Shown piece after piece: positions 1,877-57,961 of a stretch of DNA of 64,000 bases. Location of the stretch: assembly GCA_000934665.2 (NCBI GenBank), contig KZ538496.1, positions 1-64,000 on the forward strand. Reading direction: 5' to 3'. The number at the start of each line of letters is the position of its first letter. Within the stretch, counting starts at the first letter, position 1. The notes beneath the pieces were generated by a model. The model made no database searches, was not told the DNA's origin, and saw only the letters and a list, made by a program, of their open reading frames with translations. Both the position numbers and the translations under genes were made by a program. This DNA comes from Catajapyx aquilonaris (Eukaryota).

Positions 1877-2859
1877 GTCCAGCACACGACTGAGACGACC
1901 CACTGGAGCTGTGCTGGAATGAAACAAGTGTACAGCACACACAGGAATGGAAAAAGTGTGGCTTTTGAGTTGTGGTGGGGAGAAAGAAGCTGCAGCCCTC
2001 CCCGTCAGTCACTCTACTGCACGCATACTGTACCTGGTCTTGCCGCCGGTCTACCCCGAACAACGGACTTCCTTTTCCGGCACACTGCGGGCAGAACACG
2101 GGGCAGAACCAGGGGGGCAAACGAAGAGCACCTGTCACACGTTCATTGGAACGTCCAATGATGTCATAATAATATTCTAGTAGGCTGGACTACAGGCAGT
2201 AGAGTGTGAGGACATCTGGCGAGAAGAGGGTGAAAACTGCCGGTCTTTGCCGGGAAATTCGAATGAGTCTGAATGTGGTGGGATTGCTAATAAATAATAT
2301 ATAATAAATAATATATAATAAATAATAAATAATATGCCCTCATTTCAGGGGCGGTGCGCCAAAGGGACCAAACAAACTTCCTAAAACATACGTACCCCTA
2401 CCAGCACCCCCAACATACCAGGCAACACTGGGTAACCTGCTACTGCATATCATAGTAGAACTCTTTGTTCCAAACATTGTCATAAGGTCATAATAATATC
2501 GTTAGCTTCACTGCCGACATCACTGCAGCTGTTCTCTGGTTGAATCGAGACTAGCAGTAACCTTTATTGACGATGGGAGGTAAAGGGTGATTGAAAAAAG
2601 CAAGACAGAATTCTTGTAGATGAGAATGAAGTTGGGGATGATCAGCCCTTTATTTTGAGCCACATGTAAGAGAGGGCCACACTGGGAGGGGTCAGGACAA
2701 AGGTCAAGGGTTGGAGGGATGCAGGAGGGAAGGAGGAGGAGGGGAAATGACTTTATCCATCTTAACCATTGAACCACAATTCAGGGGGCATGTGTTTTGT
2801 GTGTGTACGTGTGGGGAAGGAGAAGGTGAGACAATCACTCGACAGAGACACAGCCCGTG

Positions 2860-5800
2860 TTAGTCGGACTGACCCAACATCCCCTGTGTCTTGGGAGTGT
2901 AAGCAGTCGCGTTGGGATCCAGCGCAGATGCGGCTGGGTCCCCCCCTCCGCCCACCATCCCTCCCGTCCCGACACCCGGTGGCGGAGAGGCAGGGTTGGA
3001 CCTCCTGCCCCCTCCCACCACCACCCCAACGCAAGGGGACTGCGAGTGAGAAGAGACGGAGGAGGAGGAAGAAGGGTGGTCCGCCCCCCCGCTTCCCCCT
3101 CCACCGCCTCCCCCCATAAGTAGCTTGTTTGGCGCATAAAGAAGGTCGTGGTGAGACGCAGACGGCATCACCGCCAGAACCTCCGCAATCTTCGCCTTCA
3201 GTTCCTCCACCTCGCGCTCTTTGGACAAGATCAGGCCTGGAAAATATTAAACCAGATGTTAACTCCATGACTGCAGATCAACAACACGCAATGTGTACTG
3301 ACTGTCTCTGATCTCAAGCTGCCTCTTGGCCTCCCCCAAGGCGGAAAAGAGATCCAGCTTCAGCCTGGTCTCGGCGGAGAGAGAGGTCTCCAGATGTGAG
3401 GTCTTGTCCTGCATGGCAGACAAGGCGTTCAGCAGGACCTCTGTGTCGCCCCCCTGGTTCTCCTTGAACTGCCGCAGGGCCATGGCCTCACGCTCCGACA
3501 TCAGGAGGGCCTCCTCTGAACGCCGCAGCTCACACCTCAACTGTTTGTTCTCACACTCCAGGTCCTTCCGGCGCAGGCGGCAATTATCAGAGCACTCCAA
3601 TCTGACAATAGACAAATGTGAGTACAAATTGTAGCGGCTGTGAGCAGAGACGACTCACTTGTTATTGGCAGCATTGGCTGCAGCTTGTGCCGCCTGCTGT
3701 GCTGCCTGCTGAGCTGCCTGGGCCTGGGCCTGTGCCGCAGTTGCCTGGTCCTCCTTCCTGTGCCGCCTCTCCTGCGCCAGCTGGGCCTCCACCTGCTGCC
3801 TCATCCTCCTCTCCTCCGCCAGCCTCCTCTCTGTTTGCTGAAGAGACTGCTTGTCCTGGCAGCGGCCAGACTGGAGGGAAGAGATCCGTGACTGGGCCGA
3901 CTCCAGCTCGTGCCTCAAGGACGACATCTCCGACCTCAGACCCTTCTCCACGCTCCCAGACTGACTCAACTGGGAACGCAGGTCAGACTCTGACGAACGG
4001 AGGGACTGCACGTCTGACCTCAGGCGGCGAAGCTCACCCTCAAGCCTGACAAATAAAAATCACATTACTAGACCCTTCAAAAAATGGACATGTGTCTCGA
4101 CTTGATAATACAAATGCAACTTCGGATATTTTGGTCCTTCATCATTTTCGGGTGAGCTAATATTGCATTTTTGACAGATTTCATTAATCGGTATGTAGTC
4201 TTGTAGTAGTGCATATTGCAGCCATATTGAAAGCAGAAATTTATGTTTACGTTGCGTGACGATTTGGCTATAACAGACCTCGGTTATAAACAAACTTTTT
4301 CCGCAGTCTCTTGAAGTTTGTTTTATCTGGATTCAAGTGTACCATTAACCCCTTCGCTACCTGCTATATCGCCATTGCCATCGCCAGGTATTACCAGCCA
4401 ACTCTTAAGCTGATTTAATTATTAAATTATGCTACAGTATATGCGGAATATCTACCTTGAGAAAGGTGCAAGACAAACTGATTTGCTGAAATCGTCGCAT
4501 GTCGCGAAAATTAAGGAAGTTTGGGAGTTTTCAGATGCGACGGACGGAGGCAATTAAATCAGACTAACCGTTGGCTGGTAGCACTCGACTTTCGTATTTT
4601 TGAAGACTATCTCTGCGAAAATCATTTCAGGGACTTCCCCGTGACGAAAATTGTCTCCAATACATTCATAGTGCAGACTGTAGTGTAGAGCATAAACATG
4701 TTAGTATAATATGATACATACAGTATATCACTGTAGCTGTTATTAGTTGTAAAACATCTTGTCCTTATCTTGAGAGTAATTGCAAGCGACAACCTAAGCG
4801 ATGGCGGTATAGCTGGTATTGCAAAGGGGTTTAAAAAAAGAACTGAAATAAGAGCAAAACCATTCCCTTCAGTGAAAAAAAAGGTTGCAGGACCTCCGTG
4901 GCGGAATGAAAGTACTGAAACGCGGCAGGCGCACGTAAGACCAATTGGTGAAGGTCTTACGTGCGCCTGCCTTGTTTATTCCGCCGCGGAGGTCTTACCA
5001 CCCTTTTTTTTCACTGAAGGGAATGTTTTTGCTCTTATCATGGCTACAATAGTCTTGCGAAAATGCTTACAAGGCCGATGCAAAAGATCCATAAAGCCTT
5101 GCATAACTTTTCACCGGCTTATTCCTCTGAACAATACCTCCCCTTTCAACTAGCAATCAATACTTGGAACACCTGAGTGTATTATGTAATAAGAGGGGGA
5201 GGTAATTTATCAAAAGGGCTCTAAACACCGCCAGAGTTACAACCGACCCATTTGCAACGATCCTAAACACCAAGGAAGCAAATGCATTCAATATTATGAC
5301 ATTTTCCGATTTCAAATAAAGCGAATCTACACTTGCGCAATTTGCCCAAAGTAAATTACTAGTACTTCCAACATTTAGATAATCCAACTGAACTTATTCA
5401 AAATCATACTTTTAATGCAACACCTGTTGCATTGTCTTTCCTAAACTGTAATGAAGTGGCCAGCTGCAATCCAACCCCATTGCGGGCCCCTCAAATCGAA
5501 GGCACTTGATCCACTCAGTCCGTCATTTGTGACAGGCACAGATGTCCCTAGCAAAGTAATTTCAGACTGCGAATCATTATGTCAGTCTCAATTAACGCCA
5601 ATTGTTAGGCCAAGTAAAATGAACCCCACAGCTGCCCTAAGGCCACCAAACCGCAGAACAAACAAGATTTTAATCAACACGTTCATTCCAGTGTTAGGAT
5701 GATTTCAATTAACTCATCAACTTGTTAGAAACTTTCGCAATTCAACAGTGACGGAACTAATATTTTCGTAATGCACTTCTCGCTGCTATACTTATCAATA

Positions 5801-16348: not shown

Positions 16349-18236
16349 CTAGTATGACCAGTCTGGCCCCATCCGCAGACAAAGCGGCGGAAACTGCACA
16401 ATGTCTTGAACCCACTGGGCGACCCTGAGCAATGTAAGGTCGTCCCCAAAGCGTCCGATGAGCTGGAGCCCTAAAGGTGTCCCTTCCTGGGACAGGCCTG
16501 TAGGCAGGGTGATGGCGGGAAGTCCAGCCATATTCACTGGCTGCGTACAGAAGTCTTCAACGGCAGTGTGCTGCCTCGAGTCCTTCTGCGAGAAGAGGGA
16601 GTGTCTGTGTGCCGAGCTTAAAGTGACGGGGGTCAACAGGACATCCGGAGCATCGTCGGCCTCAAACACACGCCGAAAGTCGTCCGAGATCAGCCTGCGA
16701 ACTCTCATTGCCTGAACGAAATACCTCCCGTAGTTGCTGTACCGGAAGGAAAAGATTATTGCTGGAGTACTTTTGCATAACATGCACGTGTGTTACCTTC
16801 TTAGAAGAAAGTAGTTTCCAGCGAGTATTCTTCCCCGCACAATATCGCCGAATCCCTGCGACCTAGTCGTGGCGTATAGAAGTTCAGTGGAGCCCCACAC
16901 ATCTTTGGCCCTGTGTCCGTACTTGAGCCCGTCGTACCTTGCCATGTTGCTTGCTACCTCGCACTGGTTCAGCACCGAGTAGCATGCAATGGAGTGTTCC
17001 GTGTGTGGCAGACTGACGCGCTTCAGCAGAGCTCCGTTGGATTCCAGGAGATCGGACACTCGGCTCCACTCTGAAACCACTTCGGGACTCAAGCCGTTGC
17101 AGTGGTACTCTTCGGGAATTCCCACATGGACCGGATCGGACGAATCTTTAGCGTCTACCACCGGTTCCCATGATGTGGAATCTAGTGTGTCTTGGCCTCT
17201 CAGGACATTGAAAATGGCTGCAACGTCCTCAACTGAGCGTCCGAATATTCCTGGTACGTCCAGCGAATTAACCAGTGGGATCAGGCCGTGTCTTGACAGG
17301 ATTCCGTACGTCGGCTTGTACCCAACCAGCCCACAGTACGATGCAGGGTTGCGTGTTGAACCGCCTGTGTCCGAACCCAAAGCCCTGTGGGTATCATTTC
17401 CCTTATTAGCAATTATTTTAATGAAATATTGATGACGACTGACCCAAAGCAAGATCCGGTCGCCACAGCAACAGCACTTCCTCCGGAGCTTCCACCAGCG
17501 ACAAACCAATCGCCATCTTCCAATCCACCAGTTTCTGCATTTAAAAAATTTGTGCCAATAATTGCACTTAACTTTCAAATGATATGCGCATTTACCAGCT
17601 TCTGAGTCTTTCAAGGCGTACGGAAGTCCGGAACGCCACACGTTTTTAGTAGGTCCGAATATGGAGTCCGTCGTCCCGTTTCTAGAGAGAAGAAAGTGGC
17701 TGTTAATGGACCAAGGATGCTGCTACGCTTCATCCTTACCCCATGGCAAACTCGTCCATGTTTGTCTTCCCGAGAATGACGGCCCCTGCGTCTTTCAGCT
17801 TTTGGACAACAGTCGCGTCGTAGGTCGGTACAAAGTTCTCCAGCATCCGTGATCCACACGTGGTGCGAACCCCCTTCGTGCAAAAGTTGTCCTTGATGGC
17901 CACCGGTACACCATCCAGAATACTTCTAGGTTTACCTGTAAGAAAGCTCCGTTACAAATATTGCTTTTTTTTATGTGCTTAATTATCACCATTTTGGTGC
18001 CTGATGTGGCTGTCCTCAGCCTGAGCCATGGCCGACTCTGAGTTGACGGTGACATATGCATTCAACGTCCTGGTGTCCTCGATCCTCCTGAAGCAAGAGG
18101 CCAACAACTCCACAGGAGACACGTGCCTCTTCTGCATCAGCCGCGATATCTACACAAGCAACAGGACAAGGGGTCATCAACCACTCAAAACGTGCCTATG
18201 GAAAGGCCCTACCTCCTTCAAAGTCATCACCAACAT
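16349..18236 (-). CDS. QRSL1: Glutamyl-tRNA(Gln) amidotransferase subunit A, mitochondrial (GatA)
   Basis: MLVMTLKE start, [21 protein letters not shown], amidase signature [12 protein letters not shown] and [41 protein letters not shown]. Confidence 0.96.
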
Positions 18237-18563: not shown

Positions 18564-20533
18564 ATGGCTTGGAAAATGAACAAGATCAGTAAGTTTTAGA
18601 CACATTAACGTGATTAATAATGTGTCATAATATGTTCTGTAATTGGCAGCATGTCGGGCCATCACCAGAGAGATTCCCCGACTGGTGCGTGCTCCGTACT
18701 CATCCGCTCCCGCTGGTCCGGTGGCTTCCGGACCTGCCCCGTCCGTCAAGGAGGCTCCTCTTCCTCCCCCTCCTCAGCGCATCCCGCATGGAAGGATCCC
18801 CCGTAAGATGCCAGCCTGGCAGATCCACGGGTACGGCACCTTCCAGCAGGAGCTGCAGCTGGCCTCAGAAGCAAGGGTGCCGGTCATCAGGAACCCAAAC
18901 GACGTGCTTGTAAAAATCCATGCCGCTTCGGTCAATCCAATTGACGTGAAGATGGTCGGTCAGTAGCATGCGTCAATTTATTTATAAAATACATCAGGCG
19001 CTTTACATTTCCCTTCTTGCAACAGGCGGATATGGTTCGAAGGCGCTGAACTTTCTTCGGCGGATTGACTCGGGTTTGGAGATGTCGGGTGTTCCGGAGT
19101 TCCCGCTGACATTGGGCCGTGACTTTTCTGGCGTCGTGGTGGGCAAAGGTCATGCGGTTGAGACTGTGGAAGTGGGTCAACCTGTCTGGGGCGTATCTGG
19201 ACCGCAGAGGCAGGGGACCCACGCAGGATACGTCCTCATCTCCTCTGACGGGGTCAGTTCCTATTAGAGCAGGAGGTCAAAAAATCATAAATGTGATTCG
19301 CTATGTACAACTTAATTGCGGACAGGTGACTCCAAGACCAACGAACCTGAGCGACATAGAGGCAGCGACCTTTCCCTATGCGGCACTCACAGCCTGGTCG
19401 GCGCTGCGACTGACCGGTGGGGTCAGCAAGGAAAGTGCTTCCAAGCAGCGGTTCCTTGTAATTGGTGCTTCTGGAGGGGTCGGCACCATTGTGGTCCAGA
19501 TCCTGCGGGCCTGGAAAGCACAGGTCATTAGTCCAACTCAATTAGTGGAAGCAGAAATAGAGTGTTACCTTGTTGATCCTTCCCAGGTGGTAGCAACATG
19601 CAGCTCGGATGCTGTGGAGCTGGTCTCATCCCTCGGTGCGGACAGAGTCGTGGACTACAAGCAGCCTGATGCCCAAGAGGCGCTCCTTGCAGACGGAAAG
19701 TGAGTCTTCAGCTGGGAAAGAAAATAGGAGAGTCGTTATCGTTTCTGCTTGCTGGAAGTGAAGGTTACGATTGTTAGAAGGGCTGGTTGGACAAATGAAA
19801 TGCGAGCAACGTAACACTCCCCTGATTTCTTGGCTGCTGCCATTCCCGTCAACTCTTATTGTGCTACAGTGTAACGGACACTGCTTCAGTTTAGGTTTAA
19901 TTCAACCTGCCTGTCGAGCCTTGCCATTGGGGAGTTTACCCAGAATTTTCTAGTGTATGACTGTCCTCGATGTTGTGTATCCTACCATTAGTTGTCCTCT
20001 GGTTGCCTTTTTCATCCTCCGCTCGTTTTAGATATGACCTGGTGCTTGACCTGAGCGGAAAGCTTGATCCCACCCGGCTTGACCTCCTGAAGGAAAAATC
20101 GATGGCAAAGTACGTCAGCCTGACCCACCCACTCCTTCACAACATGGATGGGTACGGGTTGGCCCTTGGACTATTCAAGAGCGCGTCTGAGGTGATCAAG
20201 CCCAACCTGTCCTACCTCACCAACGGAAAGAGCATGCGATGGGCCGTTTTCACTCCTAATCCCAAAGCGCTAAGGATTATCTGCAAGATGGTCTGCGAAA
20301 AGCAGGTGAGGAGCCAACTATCGAGTGAAACATCGCCATACATTCGTGATAGAAAAGTTCCTCTTGATGTGTAGCTCACACCAATGTTGTTGCCAGTATT
20401 TTGTTGACTGAAGTTTACTTTTCAGGTTAAGCCAGTGGTCGATAAGGTTTTCCCATTTGAAGAGACCCAAGCAGCTTACGAGAAGGTCAGCCAAGGTCAC
20501 GCTCGTGGGAAGACTGTCATTAACATGTCTTGA
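18564..20533 (+). CDS. RTN4IP1: Reticulon-4-interacting protein 1 (mitochondrial NAD(P)H oxidoreductase, MDR family)
   Basis: MPAWQIHGYG, VKIHAASVNPIDVKM, EFPLTLGRDFSGVVV, PYAALTAWSAL, GASGGVGT, GHARGKTVI; start ATG inferred from phase-compatible exon 1 (MAWKMNKIT). Confidence 0.93.
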
Positions 20534-44772: not shown

Positions 44773-44976
44773 ACTGCGAGTGTGCATAACCTTTGATTGT
44801 TGTTGTTCTGTTCCTTTCTTGTGTTAAACATTGATGTAATAGGATGAAAGTGTACAGTCATTTAGTTTTTTAAAGGAAATGATGAACGGTTGTCACACTG
44901 TCATTGAGAAAATATACGGCTGTGAACAGTTCGACACTCGTATTTAATTTCTTTTATACAATTTGTTTCCAGCATT

Positions 44977-47900
44977 CACTTGATCGGTGTGTTCTTGAGA
45001 GTCTGTGACGTTACGGGTCCCAGTTTGGTGAGCAATGAGTTGCCCTGCCACTGGGCTGCACCCGAGGCGTTGGTCTTCAGGTCAACCTACAAGAAAGGAA
45101 AAAAAGGCGTTCATTAGGACTTGGCATTCGTTAGGAATCGCAAGAATGCACGTTTAAATTCTCATTCAGAGTCTGGTTCATTACTTTTTTTATCAGTCAC
45201 TGTAACATCAGCGAGGGCAAGTTTTATCATCATCATGAGTTGCTTTGTGCGAATATCAAAACGATCAATTATGCGGACTTGCCTGCAGTTTTTCCCATAC
45301 TTTCTTCTTCGGGTTGAGAACCGCGTCTGGTGAGCCTGTTTCGTACCCATCGACGTACACTCGGTCCCCTGCGGTGCTGTCGCTTGGAGGGTCCAGTGGC
45401 TCCACGGCTCGAGGGGTGTCGGCTGATGCGCACAACACCATTCCTTTCGACTCGACCCCTTTGAGTTTGGCAGGTTTCAGGTTGCACAGGACCACAACCA
45501 GGCGATTCTGCATCTCCTCAAGCGGCACAAATGATGCAAGGCCGCTCACGATGGTACGAGGCTCTCCTTCACCTGGCCAAACAAAACATGTTCAATGCAA
45601 ATTATCAAGTTAAATTTTTGACAGGCATCAACTTGAATCGCAAAGTACAACTTCCGCTCAGAGTCTGGTTCAATAGACAATAGTTGAATCAATCACTTAA
45701 AATGTCAGCATAGTGTTATCATCATTAGGAAGTAATCATTATCATCAAAGGTTGCACTAGCTACATTACATATTTGACGAAAGCAACTATCAAGTTACCT
45801 AAATCAATCGATTCTATGTACAGGGAGTCCGCATCAGGATGTTTCTTCACGTCGACGACTTTCCCAATGCGGATGTCCAGTTTGTGTGGCGCAATCACAT
45901 CATCCTCCTCTGCAATGAAAATGATAGCAATCAAACAAGTTCATGCGAACAAATTCAAGTACACGAATTAGTGAATTTCCCTTCAGATAGTTATATCAGT
46001 CAGTAATATTCAGTGAGGGCAAGTGTGATCATCATCAAGGAATATCTATTCGCTTCATGTTCGAGAATCAAATTCAATGTAATTATGACTTACGCTTCTT
46101 TCCGGGCGGAGGGTAAGCCTTTTGGGCGAGGGCTTTAAGCTTGGGCGTCTCGAATTCTTTCCTAATTGGCTCAAGAAGCGAGTTCAGCATCCTTTCAACC
46201 GTTGCCTTCAGGTCGCCTGGATGAAGCTCCTGCTTTGCGTAGGCCTGCTCCAGCGCATCGTAGGAAGTGTAGTTCGCGGATCCTCCATTCGCCTCATCTC
46301 GTTCCACCTTAAAACCTTAAACATTTCACAAACTGCATCTGAGAGCCAAAAAATGTACGTTTCATCATAATTAGCGGAAATAATTTTACAAAGAATTGCA
46401 GTGTACGAACGGCTGTATAATTCTCACCTTCGTTAGGTTTCATCAGTGGAAACAGCACATGCTTGACGAAGGAAAGGACACCGTTGTCCTCCACGTTCCC
46501 TGGCTCGCAAAAGGCCTTCTTCAGCTTCTTCTTAACGGCTGCCGGAGTGTCCAGTAGGTCTATCTTGCTGTCTTCCTCAGACGAAGACATCTTCGCTCCA
46601 GTTAGCCCTGGAACTATGATCAAATGGTAAGTATTCTGCATACAAACGTGACGTAGCGTGCAACATACCCATCGGATTCATAAGATGTATCCGCTTCTTG
46701 TACCCAAGCTGCGGCAGATATTTCTCAGCGAATGTGAAAATCTTCCTCTGGTCCACCCCGCCAAACTGTGCGTCCACTTCCAGGTACTCCTCGTCCAAGG
46801 CCTGGAGTCCTGGATAAATAAGACCGGACAGCAGCGGATGCTCCACCTGCTTGACCACCTCGGCCCCAGCCTTTCTCGCATCATGCTCAGTCACCATGGA
46901 GGTCAGCCTGTACACGTCTAAAGTGTACTTCCTGTCCAGCTGGTAGTCCGTTCCCCGCACGAATCTTAGTTTCTCAAGAGGTACCCCGATGGAACTGAGC
47001 ATCGCACGGATAATCGCCTGGTAATACTCGACTCGTAACTCCAGCAGTTCCCACGGCGCTTTCATATTGTCCAAGTAAGCGTGCAAGTCCGCAAACAATA
47101 TGGTCACCTGGAAAGGAATCTCTGTTGCATCAGTTACATGCTGCTGCTTATTATCACTTCAAAACATATCGTTATGTCCCACTCAGTAAACTTAATCATC
47201 ACGCTCTAAATACAGAGAGGGCAAGTTTATCATCATTGTGGGCACATTTCAGAGCAAACAAATCCCTAACCTCACACCCCGCTCGCAACAGGTCGCCAAT
47301 CTTGGTCATGGGCACGAAGTACGCAATGTGCGGCTTCCCAGTCGTGGCCGTCCCCCAGTAGACCTTCAGGCTCCTCTCCTTCAGGATCTGGTCCAGCTGG
47401 TCCTCCCCCAAAATTTCCTGCAAGTTGCGTCTCACCAGCTGCTGCTTCTCCTCCCACGTCTGGCCGTCTGAGACCCCAACAAGATTCGCCGCCATGTTCA
47501 CAATCTGCAAATAAACTTGATGATGTACCACAAATTTTCAAAAGCAAGATCACGCATATTTTTAAAGTCGCAGTTCATGAGTGTCCCCTCAGAGTCTGGT
47601 TCATTATTTTTTACGTTTTCGCTTTCTTCACTTGATGTAAGTACAGACGATCATCACCGGGGTTGCGTTTACAAGCCTGAGCGTGCCATGCGGTTAGTAT
47701 GAAGCTTCCCGTCACCTGCGCTCCCATGCAAGACGACTGCAGCTTGACAAATGGAAGGTTGCTCCGTTCCCTGCAGTCCAGGCTGGAGATGTGCCTTCTC
47801 CAGCGTGTCGCATGCGGATAACTAGTGGCGTCCAGACTAATGTTCTGTACGGCCCTATGCACCTGGATGTCCACTTGGGTCAACCAGTGGTCCAGAATGT

Positions 47901-48083
47901 ATGTCCTGGAGGCCAGGTGGTCCTCCAGAACTTGCAAAAAGTCCATCTGAAACCCCAACAACTCCATTGTTCTCAATATACAGAGTCATTCAACATGGGG
48001 CTTCCTTTCGATTATTTTTAGTGATGCAAGAGTGGTTTTCAGGGCGAGCCTAAACCGACCGTGTCCCCAAGCCGAAGCGCCAT
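44977..48083 (-). CDS. YARS1: Cytosolic tyrosyl-tRNA synthetase with C-terminal EMAP II domain; conserved body starts at ATG 47495, predicted upstream exons 48083-48060 and 47946-47716
   Basis: [75 protein letters not shown]...[30 protein letters not shown]. The N-terminal extension is inferred from splice phase. Confidence 0.95.
45161..45239 (-). ncRNA. Intronic box C/D snoRNA, SNORD103/SNORD85-like, double guide (copy 1)
   Basis: ctcat-gATGATGA-taaaACTTGCCCTCg-CTGA...GTGACTGA...TGAACCAGACT-CTGA-atgag; terminal stem; D' guide complementary to 18S GAGGGCAAGU. Confidence 0.88.
45650..45733 (-). ncRNA. Intronic box C/D snoRNA (copy 2; D guide only)
   Basis: acttcc-ta-ATGATGA-taacactatg-CTGA...GTGATTGA...TGAACCAGACT-CTGA-gc-ggaagt. 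Confidence 0.82.
45977..46042 (-). ncRNA. Intronic box C/D snoRNA, SNORD103-like (copy 3; D' guide only)
   Basis: ttcc-ttg-ATGATGA-tcacACTTGCCCTCa-CTGA...CTGACTGA-tataactat-CTGA-ag-ggaa. Confidence 0.85.
47178..47242 (-). ncRNA. Intronic box C/D snoRNA, SNORD103-like (copy 4; D' guide only)
   Basis: cccac-a-ATGATGA-taaACTTGCCCTCt-CTGT...GTGATGA-ttaagttta-CTGA-gtggg. Confidence 0.85.
47585..47662 (-). ncRNA. Intronic box C/D snoRNA (copy 5; D guide only)
   Basis: cccc-g-GTGATGA...TGAACCAGACT-CTGA-gggg, in the intron between the GST-like exon and the TyrRS body. Confidence 0.82.
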
Positions 48084-48089
48084 GATTCC

Positions 48090-48340
48090 GGCCTCCCAAA
48101 TCCCCGAATAAAGAAGGGAAAACGAAACGAACCTGACCAGTTCGCCGACCACGCCATCAGAGAGAGAAAGGCCGGATGTGACGTCACTTCAACCGTTACT
48201 CCCCGTTTACATCTGCTAGGCCACCACTCACATTGGGCCAATCAGAAAGCAGGAAGCCACATGACGCATGCGTGTATAATTCACGCCAACTGGCGCGTGT
48301 AAACTATGCCGGAAGTGTCACCCGGCGTAATCTATTTACT
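48090..48340 (-). promoter_or_regulatory. TyrRS promoter (duplicated at ~51614-51890)
   Basis: Palindromic CRE TGACGTCA (48179-48186), CCAAT box, GCATGCG and CCGGAAG motifs; all retained in the duplicate (CRE 51704-51711). Confidence 0.55.
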
Positions 48341-49017
48341 CACAGTTTAATATGAAGCTTTTAATTTAGATGCAAATTAAATTTTAAAGTATTTTGCAAC
48401 CATCTTTGAAACTTATTAAAGAGAATCGCTATTATTGGCAGGATTGTGGCCAAAGATTGTGGCGCGAATTCAAATGTCTGCAAATGGGGTTGAAATTCCT
48501 CTAGTCACAAAATGGCTTCGTTCTGCACTACCCAATTATTATTATTAATTATTATTATTCGCAATACGCAGAAGCGGCGCCCACAGCATGTGCTGGTCAG
48601 GTATGAAACGCCTTCCAATATTGAAACCAATGTTTCAACTATTGAAATTGGAGAATTCAGAACGGACGTTGGTTGTCACTGGAATAAACGTGAAAGGTTT
48701 GGAACACAAGCACTCTCAGGTTCGGTTGTTTACTTTTTTAATGATCTCTCTCTCTCTCTCATCTCTCCCTCCCGCCTGGATACATGTTGATTTTTCAGAC
48801 GGAGGTTGAGGCAGCAGCGGCTGCTTTGGCAACAAGGCGCTGGTCCCTCTCCTCTGCGACGGTCAGCTTGATACCCTTGCCCTTTGGCAGGGATACGTAC
48901 GCCTTCGTGCCCTTTCCAATCATGAAAATGTAGTTTTACCTGGAATCGGAAAGGAAGACACGCATTATTAACCCAAGTGTAAACAATGCTAGTGTCCAAC
49001 ACTGAGTATGGCAAAAA

Positions 49018-49159
49018 GTATGTCCTCGCTGTGGGTAATGCTGATTCGACACTTAATAATCCAGACCAGCGACCTTTCAGAGAGAGTTACTATGCCCACC
49101 TTTTTGACCGCCCGTACACAGGAAATTTAACATAACAGGCGGCTTCGATCAGGGGCATG
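49018..49159 (-). ncRNA. H/ACA snoRNA, SNORA16-like (duplicate copy)
   Basis: Same pocket (ATCGAAG / TCAAAAAG), H box ATAGTA and ACA-nnn as 55831-55972. Confidence 0.75.
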
Positions 49160-49554
49160 CTTTCAGAATAACAGGTACAAACGTACCTGGTGGCAAACAC
49201 ATTTCCATTTGTGTCCTTGACGTGCACGATGTCAAAGGACCCCAGATGTCTCTCCCTGGACACGACTGTGCCCACTCGCCCCAAGTTGCGCCCTCCAGTG
49301 ATCATGCAGAGGTTCCCCGTCTCAAACTTGATGAAGTCCAGGATCTTCCCTGTGCCAATGTCCATCTGGATGGAGTCGTTGGCCTTGATCAGGGGATCGG
49401 GATAGCGGATGGTACGGCCATCATGGGTCACCAGGTACGGGACAGCCTTGGGGCCCAACTGCGCACGCAGGACACGACACAGCTTGTACTGCAACCAAAC
49501 AACGCGTTAAAAAATGGCCAAAAAATCCAATCGCAGATTTCACGGAGCTAAGAA

Positions 49555-49633
49555 ATCCTCTCAGCATCTGCCTCATTCTTTCGTCAATTAATAATCAGGT
49601 CAAGCGTCTATTACATTTTACATCCTTGAGGAT
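49555..49633 (-). ncRNA. Box C/D snoRNA, SNORD90-like (duplicate copy)
   Basis: GACGCTTGAC-CTGA and ATGAGGCAGATG-CTGA retained, atcctc/gaggat stem; degenerate C box. Confidence 0.6.
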
Positions 49634-49852
49634 TGCGCGACAAGATTTGTTAATAATTAAATTGTTATAATCACCTTGTCCTCTTCTGGCATGATCTGAT
49701 GTATGATGAACCTTGGTGTCGTAAATGAGCCGAAAGTCGCCGGTGTTGTCGATGGTGATTACATCCATGAATCCGGACAGATAGTTGGGATCCATTTGTG
49801 CCTTCCCATCCTCCATTATTAGAAGCTGCATCACTATCAAAATAATGATCCC

Positions 49853-52020
49853 TCCAAACAATATGGTCACCTGGAACGGAACCTCTGTTGCATCAGTTAC
49901 ATGCTGCCACTTGTTAACATTTCAAAATTTATCGGTATGTCCCACTCAGTAAACTTAATCATCACACTCTAAATGCAGAGAGGGCAAGTTTGTCATCATT
50001 GTGGGAACATTTCAAAGCAAATAAATCTCTAACCTCACACCCCGCTCTCAACAGGTCGCCAATTTTGGTCATGGGCACAAAGAACGCAATGTGCGCCTTC
50101 CCACACTTTCTTCTTTGGGTTGAGCACCGCGTCTGGTGAGCCTGTTTCGTACCCATCGACGTACACTCTGTCCCCTGCGATGCTCTCGCTTGGAAGGTCA
50201 AGTGGCGCCAGGGCTCAAGGGCTGCCGGCTGATGCGCACAACACCATTACTTTCGACTCGACCCCTTTGAGTTTCGCAGGGTTCAGGTTGCACAGGACCA
50301 CAACCAGGCGGTTCTGCATCTCCTCAAGCGGCACAAATGATGTTGTCACTGAATCATTAGGAACTCATCATTTTTATCAAATGTTGCACTAGCTACATTA
50401 CATATTTGACAAAAGCAACTATCAAGTTACCTAAATCAATAGATTCTATGTACAGGATGTTTCTTCACATCGACGACTTTCCCAATGCGGATGTCCAGTT
50501 TGTGTGGCGCAATCACGTCATCCTCCTCTGCAATGAAAATGATCGCAATCAGAACAAGTTTGTGCGAACTAAATTCATTACATGAATAAGCAAATTTCCA
50601 TTCAGATAGTTATATTAGTCATTAATATTCTGTGAGGGCAAGTTTGATCATCATTATCTCCACACTCAATCTCCAAGCGCTGTGCAGGACAGAGACAGAG
50701 GCAGACACCCAGTTGCAAGCATGACTACCGGTGTCAACCTATGCATTACTGTGCAAGAGATATTTGCCAAACTTGTAGTTCTGCACAGCACCCAGAGCCC
50801 GTGCATGACCTTCCAGACGTCGACTCCTCCCACCAATCTGCAAACATTCTCTAGCCCTTCCGAAAAATTCAATGGCACTGCCATTCCTCACAAACCCGTG
50901 AATATTCTACCCATTAATTAACCTGCGCCATTTACTCCTATCCATAGAAACAACCTTAGCCTCAGCCACGTCCATGGTCCTACTGACACATGAACGTTAA
51001 GTTCGATCATCATCAAGGAAAATCTCATCGCTTCATGTTCGAGAATCAAATTCAATGAAATTATGACTTACGTTTCTCCCAACTCCAGCAGTTCCCACGG
51101 CGCTTTCATATTGTCCAAGTAAGCGTGCAGGTCCGCAAACAATATGGTCACCTGGAACGGAACCTCTGTTGCATCAGTTACATGCTGCCACTTGTTAACA
51201 TTTCAAAATTTATCGGTATGCCCCACTCAGTAAACTTAATCATCACGCTCTAAATACAGAGAGGGCAAGTTTATCATCATTGTGGGCACATTTCAGAGCA
51301 AACAAATCCCTAACCTCACACCCCAAAATTTCCTGCAAGTTGCGTCTCACCAGCTGCTGCTTCTCCCAACTCGGGCCGTCGGGGACCCCAACAAGATTCG
51401 CCGCCATGTTCACAATCTGCAAATAAACATGCTGACGAATCACAAATTTTCAGAAGCAAGACCACGCATCTTGTTAAAGTCGCAGTTCAGTGTCCCCTCA
51501 GAGTCTGGTTCATTAATTATTTTTTACGTTTTCGCTTTCTTCACTTGATGTAAGTACAGACGATCATCACCGGGGTTGCGTTAGGCAGAAGCCCCATGAA
51601 GCAGCCTCTATATTCCGGCCCCCCAAATCCCCCGAAGAAAAGAAGGAAAAACGAAACAAACCTGACCACGCGGCCATCGAAAGAGAAAGAGACCGGGCGG
51701 ATGTGACGTCACTTCAAGTCTTCAACCGTTACTCCCCGTTTACATCTGCTAGGCCACCACTCACATTCGGCCAATCAGAACGCAGGATATTACATGACGC
51801 ATGCGTGTATGATTCAGGCCAACTGGTGCGTGTAAACCATGCCGGAAGCGTCATCTATTTACTGCAATTGCTTGTATTTACTGACAGTTTAAACGGTTTA
51901 AACCTTTACTTTGATATAAATTAATTTTTGGAAGTATTTTCAAACATTCTTTGGACTTATGGAACAGGATTGAACAGGTCGGCAGGGATGCGGCGCCAAT
52001 TCAAATATGAAATTCCTCAA
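49853..52020 (-). pseudogene. YARS1: Rearranged TyrRS pseudogene fragments with promoter and duplicated C/D snoRNAs (49941-50005, 50596-50656, 51222-51286, 51494-51575)
   Basis: Patchwork of segments similar to ~47095-47340, 45293-46100 and 47040-48470; large exonic deletions and frameshifts; GST-like exon deleted. Confidence 0.9.
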
Positions 52021-52278: not shown

Positions 52279-55200
52279 ATGCCGCAGCACTGCTCTGCAG
52301 ATGGGTGCAAATCGAGGGCCGACAAGGGCGGCTCGGGAATATCCTTTCACAGGTGAAGCAAAACGCAGCGCAGCGCCGTACACAGCACTTAACGACAATG
52401 AATTTTTAACATTGCAGTTACCCCTTGAAGAATCCAGAGTTGCTCGCCAAATGGATGAACAACCTGCGTCGGGTGAATTTCACGCCATCAATTCACAGCA
52501 AACTGTGCAGCCTGCACTTCACACACGACAGCTACCAGAAAAGACCAGGTGCTAATATACCACTCTTGAAGAAGGATGCTGTACCGACAGTATTCATCTC
52601 TCAGCAGCACCTGCGAGAGAAAGTGCCCTCACGGAAACCACCACCACCAAAGAGGAGATGCGCCAGTGACAGTTCTCAGCCTACAGCGAAGGTAACGCAT
52701 ATTGTGTGTACGACAATATGCCATTATGGGTAATCCACATGAAATGTGTGAGCATTGTCATGACAAATGTTACTACTCCATGTCACATTGGAATCCATTG
52801 TTCTTGCATGCATCTCTTTTTTTGCACAAAATGATGCCCACTGCCCACAGGAAATGTTACTGCCTACATAATAGCGTAGTGACCTGTGACTGGTCAACCA
52901 TCAAATGATGTCTCAAGTTGTTATTAAAGTTCATTGATTGATTATTTCTCAGAGGATGAAAAGCGATGGACTTGCCAAGAACACGCTGACAGCTGATACA
53001 TCTGGAAATAATAGTCGTCACATCCATGCAGCTGGAAACCCCACGGAACCCATTATTACTTCATCACCAACGAAGAAGAAATTGCCCCAGAAGATGCTTC
53101 AACAGAATCTGCGGCGCCGACCAACCAAGATCAACAAGATGAAGGATCTCCTCGAGTCATTAAGGAGAAAAAACTTGATTGGGGAGGTGGCAGAGAGTCT
53201 TCTGGCCGAGTCTTTTTCTGGATTGCAGCTGCTTAATAAGGATCCCATTAAGAACGACTCCGCCAGCAGCCCAAATGGGTACAGGTATTCAAAGGAAGTG
53301 AAAAGATTTTCCATGACTTTGTATTACCAGTCTCCGAAGGCATACAGGTTCGCGCGGTCTCACTTTAGGTTGCCACATGTCTCCCTGCTTCAGAAATGGT
53401 GCTCTAATGTAGAAGCAGAACCAGGGTTCTTAACTGATGCTTTCAACTACTTGCAAAAAAAAACCAGTGAGCAACCGTGGCTGGCTGACTGCGGTTTGGT
53501 GCTTGGCAGTATGTCAATTAGGAAATGCATGGAGTACAATTCAGCTACAAAAAGCTATGCTGGATATGTAGATTACGGTGGAGCTATAGCGGAAGCATGT
53601 GAAACTCTAGCTTCGGAAGTCTTGGTGTTTATGGTGGTATCACTTGTCGGCAAATTTAAATTTCCAGTTGCATACTTCCTTACGGACAAAGTTGCAGGAA
53701 ACGTGCAGTGTCAGCTTATCCGAGTTTGCCTGGAGAAACTGGATAATGTTGGAATTAGGGTATGGACACTTACATTAGATGGGTGTGCCTCTAGTGTTCG
53801 TACAGTCCAGGAACTAGGTGTGAATTTCACCGGTGACGTCCCCAAACTGACCACACACTTCTTGCATCCTACTAGACAGTATGAGGTCTACGTAATTTTC
53901 GATCCTTGCCACATGCTGAAACTGGCAAGGAACAGCCTCGCAGATTTAAAGGTATTGCAGTCGCTAAAGGGCACAATATCATGGAATTATGTTGCGAAAC
54001 TGCATGAATTGCAGGAAAAGGAAGTGGGCAATAAGCTGTCCCGAAATCATGTACAAAAATTGAAAGTGTGCGTGGCCGCTCAAACACTGAGTGGCTCAGT
54101 GGCCTCTGCGCTTCATTTTTTGAGAGATGGACTGAAGCTTAAGGAGTTCATGGGGTCAGAAGCAACATGTGAGTTCATGGAGATGCTGGACAAGATATTT
54201 GATTTGTGTAATTCAAAGAATCCATTTGCAAAGGGCTACAAGGCTGCTTTACGACTATCCAATCAACATGTTTGGCTGGCAACTGTCTCTCAAGCCGAAA
54301 AGTACCTCACGTCCTTGCAAATTGTCATGGAGTCGGGTCGAGCACACCCCATTATTCTTCATAGACGCAAGACTTTTGTGATTGGTTTTCTGCTTACCTT
54401 GAAATCATTGAAGTCCGTTGCAATGCACTTTCTCACTAGAGAGGTCAATCCACTGAATTACGTCATAACATATCGTTTCTCGCAAGATCACTTAGAAATG
54501 CATTTTGCAAAAATCCGAGGATGGAACAATAACCCTAGCTCTCTTCAGGTGAAACGGTTGCTTTGCCATGTACAAGCTTCTTCAACAGGCAATTGCAGGA
54601 TGCCTAATGATTTGCCTGACCCTGCAGACATATTTGAGTTTAGGTCATCAAAGAGATCGCTGAGGGACCTATCAAATGAAGAGGATACCTGCAGAGAGAG
54701 AGAATCTTGTGTGGCAGAATTACTAGATTCCTGTGCCCTGTCAGAGTTCACAGAAAACGTATTGTATTACATTGGTGGTTTCATAGTGCGCCGTTTAATG
54801 AAAACCATCACATGTCAACCTTGCATGGAGGGTCTTGTCGCCAGTCCAGTTGGAGACCATAATTATTCCTTCGCTGGGCCAATGAGCGTGTTTACAGACA
54901 TGGACAACAATGGGGGTTTAATAAAACCATCCGCAGCTGCGTTCACTGTTGTCAAAGCATGTGAACGTGCTTTCCGTGTGGTAATGTTTGGTGAGGATTT
55001 CTCGCAAATTAAAAAAAAAAGTTTTGCAAGTGTTCTTGTGCATAGTGTTTTCCGCCGAGTGTGCCATTTGCCACTGTTTCAAGGAGGTACTGCACATGAC
55101 TTATACGAGTGTGAAATTTTTGATGAGAGGCACTCTTTTCAAGTGATCAAGAAAATTGCAGAGTGCTACTTTTCGCTCAGACTGAAAACCTATGCAAAGA

Positions 55201-55283
55201 ATTTCACTACTGAGAACTTCCATATTGGTGTGCGCCAGAAGCTTATGAAACGTATTTTATTTTGCCACGAATCAACAAAGTGA
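52279..55283 (+). CDS. THAP-domain P-element-type transposase (THAP9-like), 3 exons: 52279-52351, 52418-52691, 52953-55283
   Basis: THAP C2CH: MPQHCSADGC...ISFHSYP...W...KLCSLHF...LKKDAVPTVF; P-transposase motifs YYQSPKAY, LTLDG, FDPCHMLKLARN, AAQTLS, FSQDHLE, NNNP, LYYIGGF, GGLIKPS. Confidence 0.92.
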
Positions 55284-55619
55284 CCTAACATGCAAAGGCT
55301 GAGGTGGCGTTTGTACAGTAGTGTCGGTATGGGTTGTAATGTTGACTTTCTTATTTTGTATATCTTGCACTATAATTCTTGTTTTACTTTCAACATGTAG
55401 CATTGTAATGTGTTATTATGAAGGTTTCCTTGAGAAAATACACTTGTATGGAAAGGGATAGCGAGTTATGCATCTTACGTGCTGTCATCAGTGCCCTGTG
55501 GCTGAATGCCACTGGAATAAATGGGAAAGGTTTGGAACGCAAGAACTCTCATGTTCGGTTGTTTACTTTTTTTAATGATCTCTCTCTCTCTCCCTCCCGC
55601 CTGGATACATGTTGATTTT

Positions 55620-57243
55620 TCAGACGGACGTTGAGGCAGCAGCGGCTGCTTTGGCAGCAAGGCGCTGGTCCCTTTCCTCTGCGATGGTCAGCTTGATACC
55701 CTTGCCCTTTGGCAGGGATACGTACGCCTTCGTGCCCTTTCCAATCATGAAAATGTAGTTTTGCCTGGAATCGGAAAAGAAGACACGCATTATTAACCCA
55801 AGTGTAAACAACGCTAGTGTCCAACACTGAGTATGTCCTCGCTGTGGGTAATGCTGATTCGACACTTAATAATCCAGACCAGCGACCTTTCAGAGAGAGT
55901 TACTATGCCCACCTTTTTGACCGCCCGTACGCAGGTAATTTAACATAACAGGCGGCTTCGATCAGGGGCATGCTTTCAGAATAACAGGTGCAAACGTACC
56001 TGGTGGCAAACACATTTCCATTTGTGTCCTTGACGTGCACGATGTCAAAGGACCCCGGATGTCTCTCCCTGGACACGACTGTGCCCACTCGCCCCAAGTT
56101 GCGCCCTCCAGTGATCATGCAGAGGTTCCCGGTCTCAAACTTGATGAAGTCCAGGATCTTCCCTGTGCCAATGTCCATCTGGATGGAGTCGTTGGCCTTG
56201 ATCAGGGGATCGGGGTAGCGGATGGTACGGCCATCATGGGTCACCAGGTACGGGACAGCCTTGGGGCCCAACTGCGCACGCAGGACACGACACAGCTTGT
56301 ACTGCAACCAAACAAGGTGTTAAAAAATGGCCAAAAAATCAAACCACAAATTTCACGGAGTTAAGAAATCCTCTCAGAATCTGCCTCATTCTTTCGTCAA
56401 TGAATAATCAGGTCAAGCGTCTATTACATTCTACATCCTTGAGGATCGCACGACAAGATTTGTTAATAATTAATTTCTTATAGTCACCTTCGCCTCTTCT
56501 GGAGTGATCCGATGCACGATGAACCTCCCCTTGGTGTCGTAAATGAGCCGAAAGTGCTCTCCGGTCTTGTCAATGGTGATCACATCCATGAATCCGGATG
56601 GATAGTTGGGATCCGTTCGCACCTTCCCGTCCACCTTTATTAGACGCTGCATCACTATTTTTTTAACCTCCGCCGCAGTCAGTGCGTACTTCAGCCGGTT
56701 CCGAAGAAAGATGATTAGCGGCAGGCATTCCCTCAGCTTGTGGGGGCCTGAGCTAGGCCGAGGTGCGAACACCCCGGCCAGCTTCCCCAACATCCAGTGC
56801 TTCGGCGCATGGATACGCTTCAAGTGTTTACGCGGTCCGCGAACCTGTAAAAATTAATAACACATAAGTAAACATGTCCCACTTGCTGCAACGGACTGTG
56901 TCCGCCCCAGAAAATTCCTCTCAGAATCTGCCTCATGCTATCTTCACTTGTAAAAATCAGGTCAAGCGTCATGATCATTCATCACTGAGGATCTGTACAC
57001 ACAATTAATTGCACTAATTGGCCCCCCCTAAAATTTGGAACATATCGGGAATAATTCGAACACTTTTTTTCCCCCACATTGATTTTCAGGCTGCTCTCAA
57101 CCAACACCGGTTCGACCAGTACCGTTTTTCATCCGGAATTTTTCCCGGGACAATCCGGACACCTGGATGAACCGGGGATGGCCGATCCGGTGGCGGATAA
57201 GCCCGGATTTTATGTTGAAAAGGGAAGAAAAAGGACTCACCAT
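55620..57243 (-). CDS. RPS4: 40S ribosomal protein S4 (eS4), 4 exons (exon 1 = ATG only)
   Basis: [20 protein letters not shown]...[11 protein letters not shown]...[18 protein letters not shown]...YKLCRV...[12 protein letters not shown]...[16 protein letters not shown]. Confidence 0.97.
55831..55972 (-). ncRNA. Intronic H/ACA snoRNA, SNORA16/snR46-like
   Basis: Hairpin atgccc-ctgATCGAAG-ccgcctgt...acgggcgg-TCAAAAAG-gtgggc, H box ATAGTA, second hairpin (tcgctg...cagcga), ACA 3 nt from the end; pocket pairs LSU CUUUUUGA-UC-CUUCGAU. Confidence 0.85.
56368..56446 (-). ncRNA. Intronic box C/D snoRNA, SNORD90-like (RpS4 intron 2)
   Basis: atcctc-a-AGGATGT (degenerate C)...GACGCTTGAC-CTGA...TTGACGA...ATGAGGCAGATT-CTGA-gaggat. 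Confidence 0.7.
56916..56991 (-). ncRNA. Intronic box C/D snoRNA, SNORD90-like (RpS4 intron 1)
   Basis: tcctc-a-GTGATGA...GACGCTTGAC-CTGA...GTGAAGA...ATGAGGCAGATT-CTGA-gagga; D guide complementary to 18S UCUGCCYUAU. Confidence 0.85.
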
Positions 57244-57272
57244 CTTGGCTACACACACGCCACACGCCGAAC

Positions 57273-57283
57273 CGGAAAAGGAT
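57273..57283 (-). promoter_or_regulatory. TCT/5'TOP polypyrimidine initiator of RpS4
   Basis: TCCTTTTCCG ~30-40 nt upstream of the RpS4 ATG, typical of ribosomal protein genes. Confidence 0.65.
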
Positions 57284-57961
57284 TGAAGCAGGGGTGCCAG
57301 GTGAAGGACAGGGTTGCCAGATGGTGAGAAAGAGGGAGATGAACGACGTGCCCTGATTGGCTGGGGGTCACACTGGACAGCCAATCGATGCTTCTGTGCG
57401 CTCTGTATGCGGCGTAGGATTAATGCTGGCTGTCATTTAAACAGCATTAAATTCTAAATTCAGTGCGCCAGAAGTTAATTAAATATTACTTAATAATTTA
57501 AAAAAATATTAGTGTGTTAAATAAATATGATTAGCGCATACTAGCCGTGTGATACCGGCGCAACAGCGCGTCTGAATTCAACGAACATTATCATTTTTGT
57601 TCGATTGTTTTTAAAAAATGAAAGGGCTGCTGCACATTAAATTTTATATTCCGCGAAAATCAAAATAATTGCAACATTTAATCTGGTTTAAACATGCGAT
57701 TTGTTTAATACATTTGGACACGGTCTACCGGTTCGGATGCGAATCGGTTTTGTGCAAAAAGTTTCGCCAATCGTTTTATATTCGCATCTCCGGACGACCG
57801 ACCTGAAGTTCGGTAAGGAAACTGGGGCCTTTCATAGAATGCGATTCGAACCCGAAATCCGCCGAAAACCAACATTGAGTATTTTGCACCAATATCAGCA
57901 CAGTTAATTAGCAAGTAATATACATACAAATTTTCAGCACAATTATTTATGCAATGAGCAG

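Follow-up and report, generated by a model that had tools for sequence, protein, structure and literature searches.

Probable box C/D snoRNA genes in the introns of a tyrosyl-tRNA synthetase gene of Catajapyx aquilonaris and in a decayed duplicate of the gene

The stretch of DNA analysed here (the window) comprises positions 1 to 64,000 of contig KZ538496.1 of Catajapyx aquilonaris (assembly GCA_000934665.2). On its minus strand lies a gene for a cytoplasmic tyrosyl-tRNA synthetase (TyrRS, 44976..47950), the introns of which harbour five putative box C/D small nucleolar RNA (snoRNA) genes, and a duplicate of parts of this gene with further copies of the same family. The TyrRS gene was delimited by protein searches, a spliced contig and a match of its last exon, and encodes a catalytic and an EMAP-II-like domain. 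Its exons are located at 47950-47716, 47504-47271, 47107-46669, 46613-46428, 46315-46094, 45909-45799, 45572-45283 and 45086-44976 (all on the minus strand). Used as a query, the largest exon (47107-46672) matched tyrosine--tRNA ligases, with 1536 proteins at E ≤ 0.001 and top identities of 88% to sequences of a nemertean and of fishes. Full-length matches featured the domains PF00579 (catalytic domain) and PF01588 (EMAP-II-like).

The gene is of the metazoan type and is spliced. A contig of 1701 nt from sequencing run X5 spans six GT..AG introns (47715-47505, 47270-47108, 46668-46614, 46427-46316, 46093-45910 and 45798-45573, minus strand, stated cut shifts allowed for), and none of these joints is found in the DNA runs X1-X3. 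The kind of run X5 is unrecorded; it was taken as RNA because its contigs show GT..AG joints that are absent from the DNA runs. Since four of the six introns joined in this contig contain snoRNA units, the units are intronic. The two unit-free introns are the shortest ones (55 and 112 nt). The contig stops at 45299, and the seventh intron (45282-45087, minus strand), which holds unit c1, lies outside its cover. This intron is predicted to be of the GC-AG type (donor CAG/GCAAGT at 45281-45282), based on the reading frame and on the match of the last exon to the TyrRS C-terminus (residues 497-531 of a 531-aa TyrRS, 19 of 35 residues identical, E 9e-12).

All five units are found on the minus strand, one per intron, and range from 65 to 84 nt in length. 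Two guide sequences recur in them, guide A (ACUUGCCCUC) before the D′ box and guide B (UGAACCAGACU) before the D box. Unit c5 (47662-47585, 78 nt) has the terminal stem CCCC/GGGG, carries guide B only and is located in the intron 47715-47505, 80 nt from the 3′ splice site. Guide A is the only one of the two in c4 (47242-47178, 65 nt, stem CCCAC/GUGGG), which lies in the intron 47270-47108 at 70 nt from the 3′ splice site, and in c3 (46042-45977, 66 nt, stem UUCCUU/AGGGAA), for which this distance is 67 nt in the intron 46093-45910. Unit c2 (45733-45650, 84 nt, stem ACUUCC/GGAAGU) again carries guide B only and is separated by 77 nt from the 3′ splice site of the intron 45798-45573. Both guides are present in c1 (45239-45161, 79 nt, stem CUCAU/AUGAG), with guide A before D′ and guide B before D, and the predicted 3′ splice site follows after 74 nt.

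A C box (RUGAUGA) near the 5′ end and a D box (CUGA) near the 3′ end occur in all five units, and also in the copies d5, d4 and d4b of the duplicate described below. The terminal stems of 4-6 bp found throughout all differ in sequence, yet each is self-complementary. The distance from the end of the unit to the 3′ splice site is 67-80 nt in all five cases (four introns RNA-supported, the c1 intron predicted), which is the optimal spacing for the processing of intronic C/D snoRNAs. These results agree with a preliminary description of the locus, which had placed five C/D units with terminal stems of their own in one TyrRS intron each and had assigned both guides to c1, guide A alone to c3 and c4, and guide B alone to c2 and c5. 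Its list of copies was incomplete, as four more are present at 49941-51575.

Internally, the units differ from each other. The D′ box reads CUGA in c3 and CUGU in c4, whose C′ box is canonical (GUGAUGA); in both units, D follows C′ after only about 9 nt. Unit c5 shows no recognisable D′ box, while c2 has an additional D′ box (CUGA) preceded by AUAACACUAUG. Targets were searched for in ribosomal DNA (rDNA) of 46 contaminant eukaryotic loci in prokaryote assemblies, which had been found with a degenerate 18S primer. Neither the D′ guide of c2 nor the D guides of c3 and c4 have a conserved ribosomal RNA (rRNA) target among these fetched loci.

Chance is excluded as the source of this pattern. The exact guide A 10-mer occurs six times in the window, every time on the minus strand; with at most one mismatch, 10 matches were obtained vs. 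4.63 expected, a number reached by one of 100 shuffles. The 15-mer formed by guide B and the D box occurs four times (0.15 expected), which none of 100 shuffles reached. Scanning for the anatomy itself (stem, C box, 45-100 nt, D box, stem) yielded 10 sites in the window, whereas 100 first-order Markov simulations averaged 0.55 sites and never exceeded 3. Seven of these sites are units of the family, one lies in the gene RPS4 and two are unrelated. Unit c2 was missed by the scan because its stem sits 2 nt off the D box. We hold with good confidence that the five units are real box C/D snoRNA genes.

A permissive Rfam search covered 44800-48100. SNORD103 (RF00188) ranked first for c1 (32.3 bits, E 4.7e-4), c4 (31.4 bits, E 8.4e-4) and c3 (21.1 bits, E 0.58); all three remain under its gathering cut-off of 45 bits. 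Unit c2 gave a weak generic match to snoR53Y (26 bits), and no Rfam family was obtained for c5 (top match 17.3 bits).

Two features of the host gene were observed besides. The c5 intron lies upstream of the canonical TyrRS start codon, and the exon before it (47716-47950, minus strand) has an open frame continuous with that start and shows a weak Pfam match to Arc1p_N_like (PF21972, 22.2 bits vs. a cut-off of 27); on these grounds TyrRS may be extended at its N-terminus, with the c5 intron interrupting coding sequence rather than the 5′ untranslated region. One TyrRS homologue in the protein search also carries an Arc1p_N_like domain. In the unit-free intron of 112 nt (46316-46427, minus strand), UGAUGA is followed 25 nt later by CAGA; this stemless stretch is too short for a unit and could be a relic or due to chance.

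Guide A is complementary to 18S GGAGGGCAAGU and forms 10 contiguous pairs with the target GGAGGGCAAGT. The exact target is present in 7 of 21 rDNA loci of at least 1500 nt, and most of the others lack that part of the 18S rRNA. Position 5 of the guide faces the middle G of a GGG, with the same spacing to D′ in all three copies c1, c3 and c4. In box C/D snoRNAs, the nucleotide paired five positions upstream of the box is the one that is methylated. Because of this rule, guide A is predicted to direct the 2′-O-methylation of the middle G of GGG in 18S GGAGGGCAAGU, which would be the human Gm601 site. In human, Gm601 is assigned to SNORD85 and SNORD103A/B, according to the available part of PMC11550049.

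The comparison with SNORD103/SNORD85 (RF00188, also U103 or HBII-251) shows that both have the D′ guide core CUUGCCCUC, set apart from the D′ box by a single base, and that they agree in the predicted target, 18S Gm601 in human numbering. In the cmscan alignment, guide A ACUUGCCCUC stands opposite CACUUGCCCUCACUGA of the SNORD103 model. SNORD103 is likewise intronic and present in multiple copies: chicken U103 has three copies in introns 9, 12 and 21 of a single gene, PUM1, as reported in the accessible sections of PMC2653536. The accessible passages of a Xenopus snoRNA paper (PMC6984369) do not treat SNORD103, PUM1 or G601. Differences are seen in the host, TyrRS instead of the PUM1 of human and chicken, and in the conserved second guide of c1. 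Judged by its predicted function, guide A is the functional counterpart of SNORD103, and the units carrying it are probably related to that family. The sub-threshold Rfam matches, the target in seven rDNA loci and the published assignments thus bear out the earlier proposal of a SNORD103/SNORD85-type guide with PUM1 as a known host.

Motif matches at 49980, 50634 and 51261 (guide A) and at 51498 (guide B) revealed a second cluster. It is located in a rearranged duplicate of the TyrRS promoter region and pieces of the gene (49855..51853, minus strand), which has suffered extensive deletions and was recognised by self-comparison and motif searches. The duplicate retains the introns of c5, c4 (twice) and c3, a promoter copy and several splice sites, while its exons are deleted or out of frame. 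On the minus strand, it contains d5 (51575-51494) with guide B, and d4 (51286-51222) and d4b (50005-49941) with guide A. A fourth copy, d3 (about 50654-50596), possibly carries guide A as well, with D′ mutated to CAGA and the stem lost. Directly joined to the duplicate is a partial copy of the 3′ part of RPS4 (48674..49837, minus strand), 92.8% identical to 55507-56658.

Compared to their parents, the intact copies are conserved. Between d5 and c5, no substitution is found at 79 positions of the unit, in contrast to 9 at 76 positions of the downstream intron flank (p = 0.0013); d5 has an insertion of four columns (TAAT) in the spacer, which is rich in A and U. Because the 38 nt that precede c5 are non-homologous (22/38 differ), they were excluded from this comparison. 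Units d4 and c4 are identical at 65 of 65 nt, and their downstream flanks differ at 10 of 71 positions; the scripted count, with margins of 1 nt, gives 1/67 in the unit vs. 10/71 in the flank (p = 0.009). The intron flanks of d5 and d4 have diverged by 12-14% from their parents. When both pairs are pooled, 1/146 substitutions in the units compare to 19/172 in the flanks (p = 8e-5). Unit d4b shows three substitutions, none of them in a box, guide or stem; it provides no independent comparison, since its flank differences are common to d4. As the units d5 and d4 stayed unchanged while their flanks diverged, selection is suggested, which may have conserved the intact copies while the broken d3 decays.

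The state of d3 is due to an insertion of 350 bp (51004-50655), which separates it from its own 5′ end and is flanked by a 9-bp direct repeat (ATGATGATC). The inserted sequence is a high-copy repeat with a read depth of 740-3000 (about 40 elsewhere), and its insertion point coincides exactly with the C box of the c3 copy in the duplicate. Cover of the duplicate by the DNA runs is no independent check, because these runs may be the assembly's own source. Run X5 has no cover over 48108-51715 and is uninformative on transcription of the duplicate, which might simply be a pseudogene. The sequence that precedes TyrRS is itself duplicated (48085-48320 and 51612-51853, minus strand, 84% identical). 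It features a pyrimidine tract (CTTTCTCTCTCT), then ATGGCG and then a GT donor, and looks like a first exon of the TOP type in a region that X5 contigs do not cover. Such first exons are typical for snoRNA host genes and ribosomal protein genes.

Guide B is found in c1, c2, c5 and d5. Among conserved sites it matches 18S UGUCUGGUUAAUU best, pairing there at 11 of the 12 positions 2-13. On 18S TGTCTGGTTAATT, positions 2-9 pair, position 10 is mismatched and positions 11-13 pair again in c1 and c5. This site is present in 12 of 22 rDNA loci of at least 1400 nt. Of 1000 shuffled guides, 7-19 matched the 11/12 pairs of guide B, compared to 20-38 for guide A on its accepted site. Positions 1-8 of guide B also find a complement in AGTCTGGT, a second match of 8 nt. 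In all seven loci that have the guide A target, this match lies directly 3′ of that target and overlaps it by 3 nt. The candidate nucleotides are those which we take to be U1364 and U609 in human 18S numbering. Guide B would direct a second methylation, for which the likeliest conserved target is the 18S U that ends UGUCU and precedes GGUUAAUU.

Other targets of guide B were considered. Assignment to the SNORD33/snR55 type (18S Um1326) was rejected, as no SNORD33 match was found at E ≤ 10 and the site lies about 38 nt downstream of U1326 by the numbering assumed here. Um1326 is listed with SNORD33 in the accessible part of PMC6466398. Another candidate was a variable hairpin that follows GACTCTAGTC in 28S. 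Each of the five loci that include it has a version of its own, and none of these matches guide B; in the source animal, the hairpin could match it. Within the window, the sole antisense complements of guide B are the units themselves. A literature search with the guide strings returned unrelated primers only. Viral contigs scanned with the 15-mer of guide B and D box gave 117 stretches, which were not used because this is about the chance level for a 15-mer.

Taken together, the locus is best explained by a family of box C/D snoRNA genes in which guide A would direct methylation at the Gm601 equivalent and guide B a second methylation, and which would have grown by duplication. As a whole, we consider this explanation highly probable. 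Anatomy, intronic position, splicing of the host, complementarity to rRNA and conservation between the duplicates are observed; stable RNAs, methylation and the sequence of events are deduced. Once the TyrRS pre-mRNA is spliced, each snoRNA would be freed, its ends trimmed as far as the terminal stem, and the product assembled into a methyltransferase particle. The family would have spread from intron to intron within TyrRS, and then again by partial gene duplication.

Several points weigh against this explanation. No Rfam family reaches its gathering score across the whole window, and the c1 intron is predicted, with no RNA joint spanning it. A perfect 11-mer target of guide B is absent from the fetched rDNAs, which belong to contaminants from other eukaryotes and not to the source animal; at its conserved 18S site, position 10 forms a G.A mismatch, to which c2 adds another mismatch. 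Neither candidate U, in the numbering assumed above, appears in the available portion of a human 18S list (PMC11550049). In the duplicate, the contrast between d4b and its flanks is non-significant (4/67 vs. 13/96, p = 0.19), and the 25 nt upstream of c4 are likewise identical in d4 (0/25 differ). Identity between the duplicates could also be explained by gene conversion.

The nine units align solely via boxes and guides, with a mean column identity of 57%, which confirms the earlier remark that spacers have diverged while the guides are kept. Significant extra similarity was observed only between c1 and c3, which share the D′-C′ linker and the C′ region UGACUGAUA (5 of 2000 shuffles reach the score). 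Two origins were weighed on this basis. According to the first, a double-guide ancestor resembling c1 was copied into other introns, and reciprocal loss of one guide followed (subfunctionalisation). Unit c3 aligns to c1 through guide A, the D′ box, the linker and the C′ box and then lacks the guide B stretch (the 5/2000 case), and the distance of about 9 nt from C′ to D in c3 and c4 is as expected once a guide has been lost. The same trend has been proposed for a cluster in zebrafish, in the text of PMC7668251 as far as available. However, nothing like guide A is seen beyond chance in the 5′ halves of c2 and c5 (scores equalled by 232 and 200 of 2000 shuffles), nor anything like guide B in the 3′ half of c4 (848 of 2000), and a single genome offers no outgroup for the direction of change. 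We regard reciprocal loss as a serious possibility that falls somewhat short of likely.

According to the second, c1 is a chimera formed by unequal recombination of an A-type (c3-like) and a B-type (c5-like) single-guide family within one gene. The 5′ and middle parts of c1 are like c3, its A-rich tail and UAAUGAACCAGACU are like c5, and A-only and B-only units share nothing significant besides the boxes. However, the same similarities are expected with c1 as the ancestor, and the A-rich tail is of low complexity. A chimeric origin is therefore held as possible but rather doubtful. Both processes, loss from a double guide and fusion, are already in print. The preliminary description had offered subfunctionalisation and fusion side by side, and on the basis of one genome c1 could equally be the ancestor or the chimera. 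Among 80 metagenome TyrRS loci (L164-L243), no unit with guide A or B was found, and two motif matches lie in unrelated sequence. These loci are no test of conservation in relatives, because most of them are about 2 kb long with the exon uninterrupted; most look like transcripts or distant eukaryotes.

Going further, guide B might direct a methylation that the human and yeast maps lack, at the universally conserved 18S U named above (or one at a lineage-specific perfect target), and the TyrRS duplicate might be a recently formed non-coding host gene that has lost its exons and persists through selection on the snoRNAs in its introns. In this combination, we think both unlikely to hold.

Guide B might instead have no methylation of its own and assist guide A in c1 through accessory pairing, a mechanism known for snoRNA guides from work in yeast. 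The match AGTCTGGT beside the guide A target, present in 7/7 loci, would suit such a role. However, c2, c5 and d5 have guide B without guide A, so guide B is kept on its own; 8 nt are expected to match by chance within several kb of rRNA; and, because the pairings of A and B overlap, a given rRNA molecule can accommodate only one of them at a time. An accessory role is thus very improbable. Equally hard to credit are some or all units as decaying relics that no longer yield stable snoRNAs: d3 is clearly broken, c4 has CUGU as D′ box and c5 none that is recognisable, but all five TyrRS units retain boxes, stem and splice-site spacing, their guides are invariant over very diverged copies, and the units are better conserved than the flanking intron.

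The family of box C/D snoRNA genes can be compared to known systems. Its kind is already known, namely an intronic C/D snoRNA cluster expanded inside a host gene. New are TyrRS as the host, the second guide (B) and a decayed duplicate retaining intact units. The listings of a literature search showed a review of translation components in the nucleus and no paper naming TyrRS (YARS) as a snoRNA host, in keeping with the preliminary description, whose author did not know it as one. In zebrafish, the host gene FP101887 (SNORD52/SNORD202 family) contains nine SNORDs, of which seven are double guides and two have a degenerate D or D′ element, and the study suggests that single guides derive from double guides (PMC7668251, available sections). 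The TyrRS locus is similar in that one host gene harbours paralogous C/D snoRNAs with double and single guides. It differs in its guides and targets, in that only one of the five units of the intact gene is a double guide, and in its host, a protein-coding aminoacyl-tRNA synthetase gene.

The genes GAS5 and UHG are non-coding snoRNA hosts. The TyrRS duplicate resembles them in combining a promoter copy, splice sites and intact snoRNA introns with ruined exons. If it is indeed a young non-coding host, the duplicate would show how a gene of the GAS5 type arises from a protein-coding one. A gas5-like host gene is the subject of a section in the chicken paper (PMC2653536, accessible part).

The top protein identities (88% for a TyrRS exon, 67% for QRSL1) are spread over protostomes and deuterostomes, so the source animal lacks a close named relative in the collection searched. 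The SNORD103-type guide is thereby placed in an animal for which those databases contain no closely related vertebrate. A guide for the Gm601 equivalent may therefore predate the vertebrate family, and the TyrRS host, compared to PUM1 in human and chicken, indicates that hosts of the same guide move. Several stages coexist at the locus. A double guide stands next to four single guides in the intact gene, and the decaying duplicate contains three intact copies besides one that a repeat insertion has destroyed. No new principle emerges; the locus is of value as an annotation and as a natural experiment in how selection treats RNAs encoded in introns.

The window contains further features. RPS4 (55600-57300, minus strand) is intact and highly covered, and holds two paralogous intronic C/D-like units (56990-56918 and 56440-56366), the second with a degenerate C box. 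A third unit of this type lies at about 49636-49560 in the partial RPS4 duplicate. The guides common to the RPS4 units are GACGCUUGAC before CUGA and AUGAGGCAGAUU before CUGA, and their Rfam matches are weak (at most 27 bits). One rDNA locus has GTCAAGCGTT, which is complementary to the D′ guide of these units.

Between the TyrRS duplicate and RPS4, an open frame of 781 aa (52938-55283, plus strand) features transposase domains of the P-element/THAP9 type (PF21787 with 1.7e-39, PF21788, PF12017, PF22824 and PF21789). Run X5 shows GT..AG joints just upstream of it (52349/52415 and 52689/52951). The anatomy scan also found a C/D-like site at 686-740 (minus strand; AUGAUGA ... CUGA, 5-bp stem), which has no Rfam match at E ≤ 1 and may be due to chance. 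Exons similar to QRSL1, the subunit A of the mitochondrial Glu-tRNA(Gln) amidotransferase, are located at 16796-17386 (minus strand) and 19110-19703 (plus strand), with a top identity of 67% among molluscs, insects and fishes; an open frame near them has a weak match to zinc-binding dehydrogenases. Acidic-serine and GGR repeats abound in open reading frames at 13.5-15.5 kb, the products of which may be nucleolar proteins.

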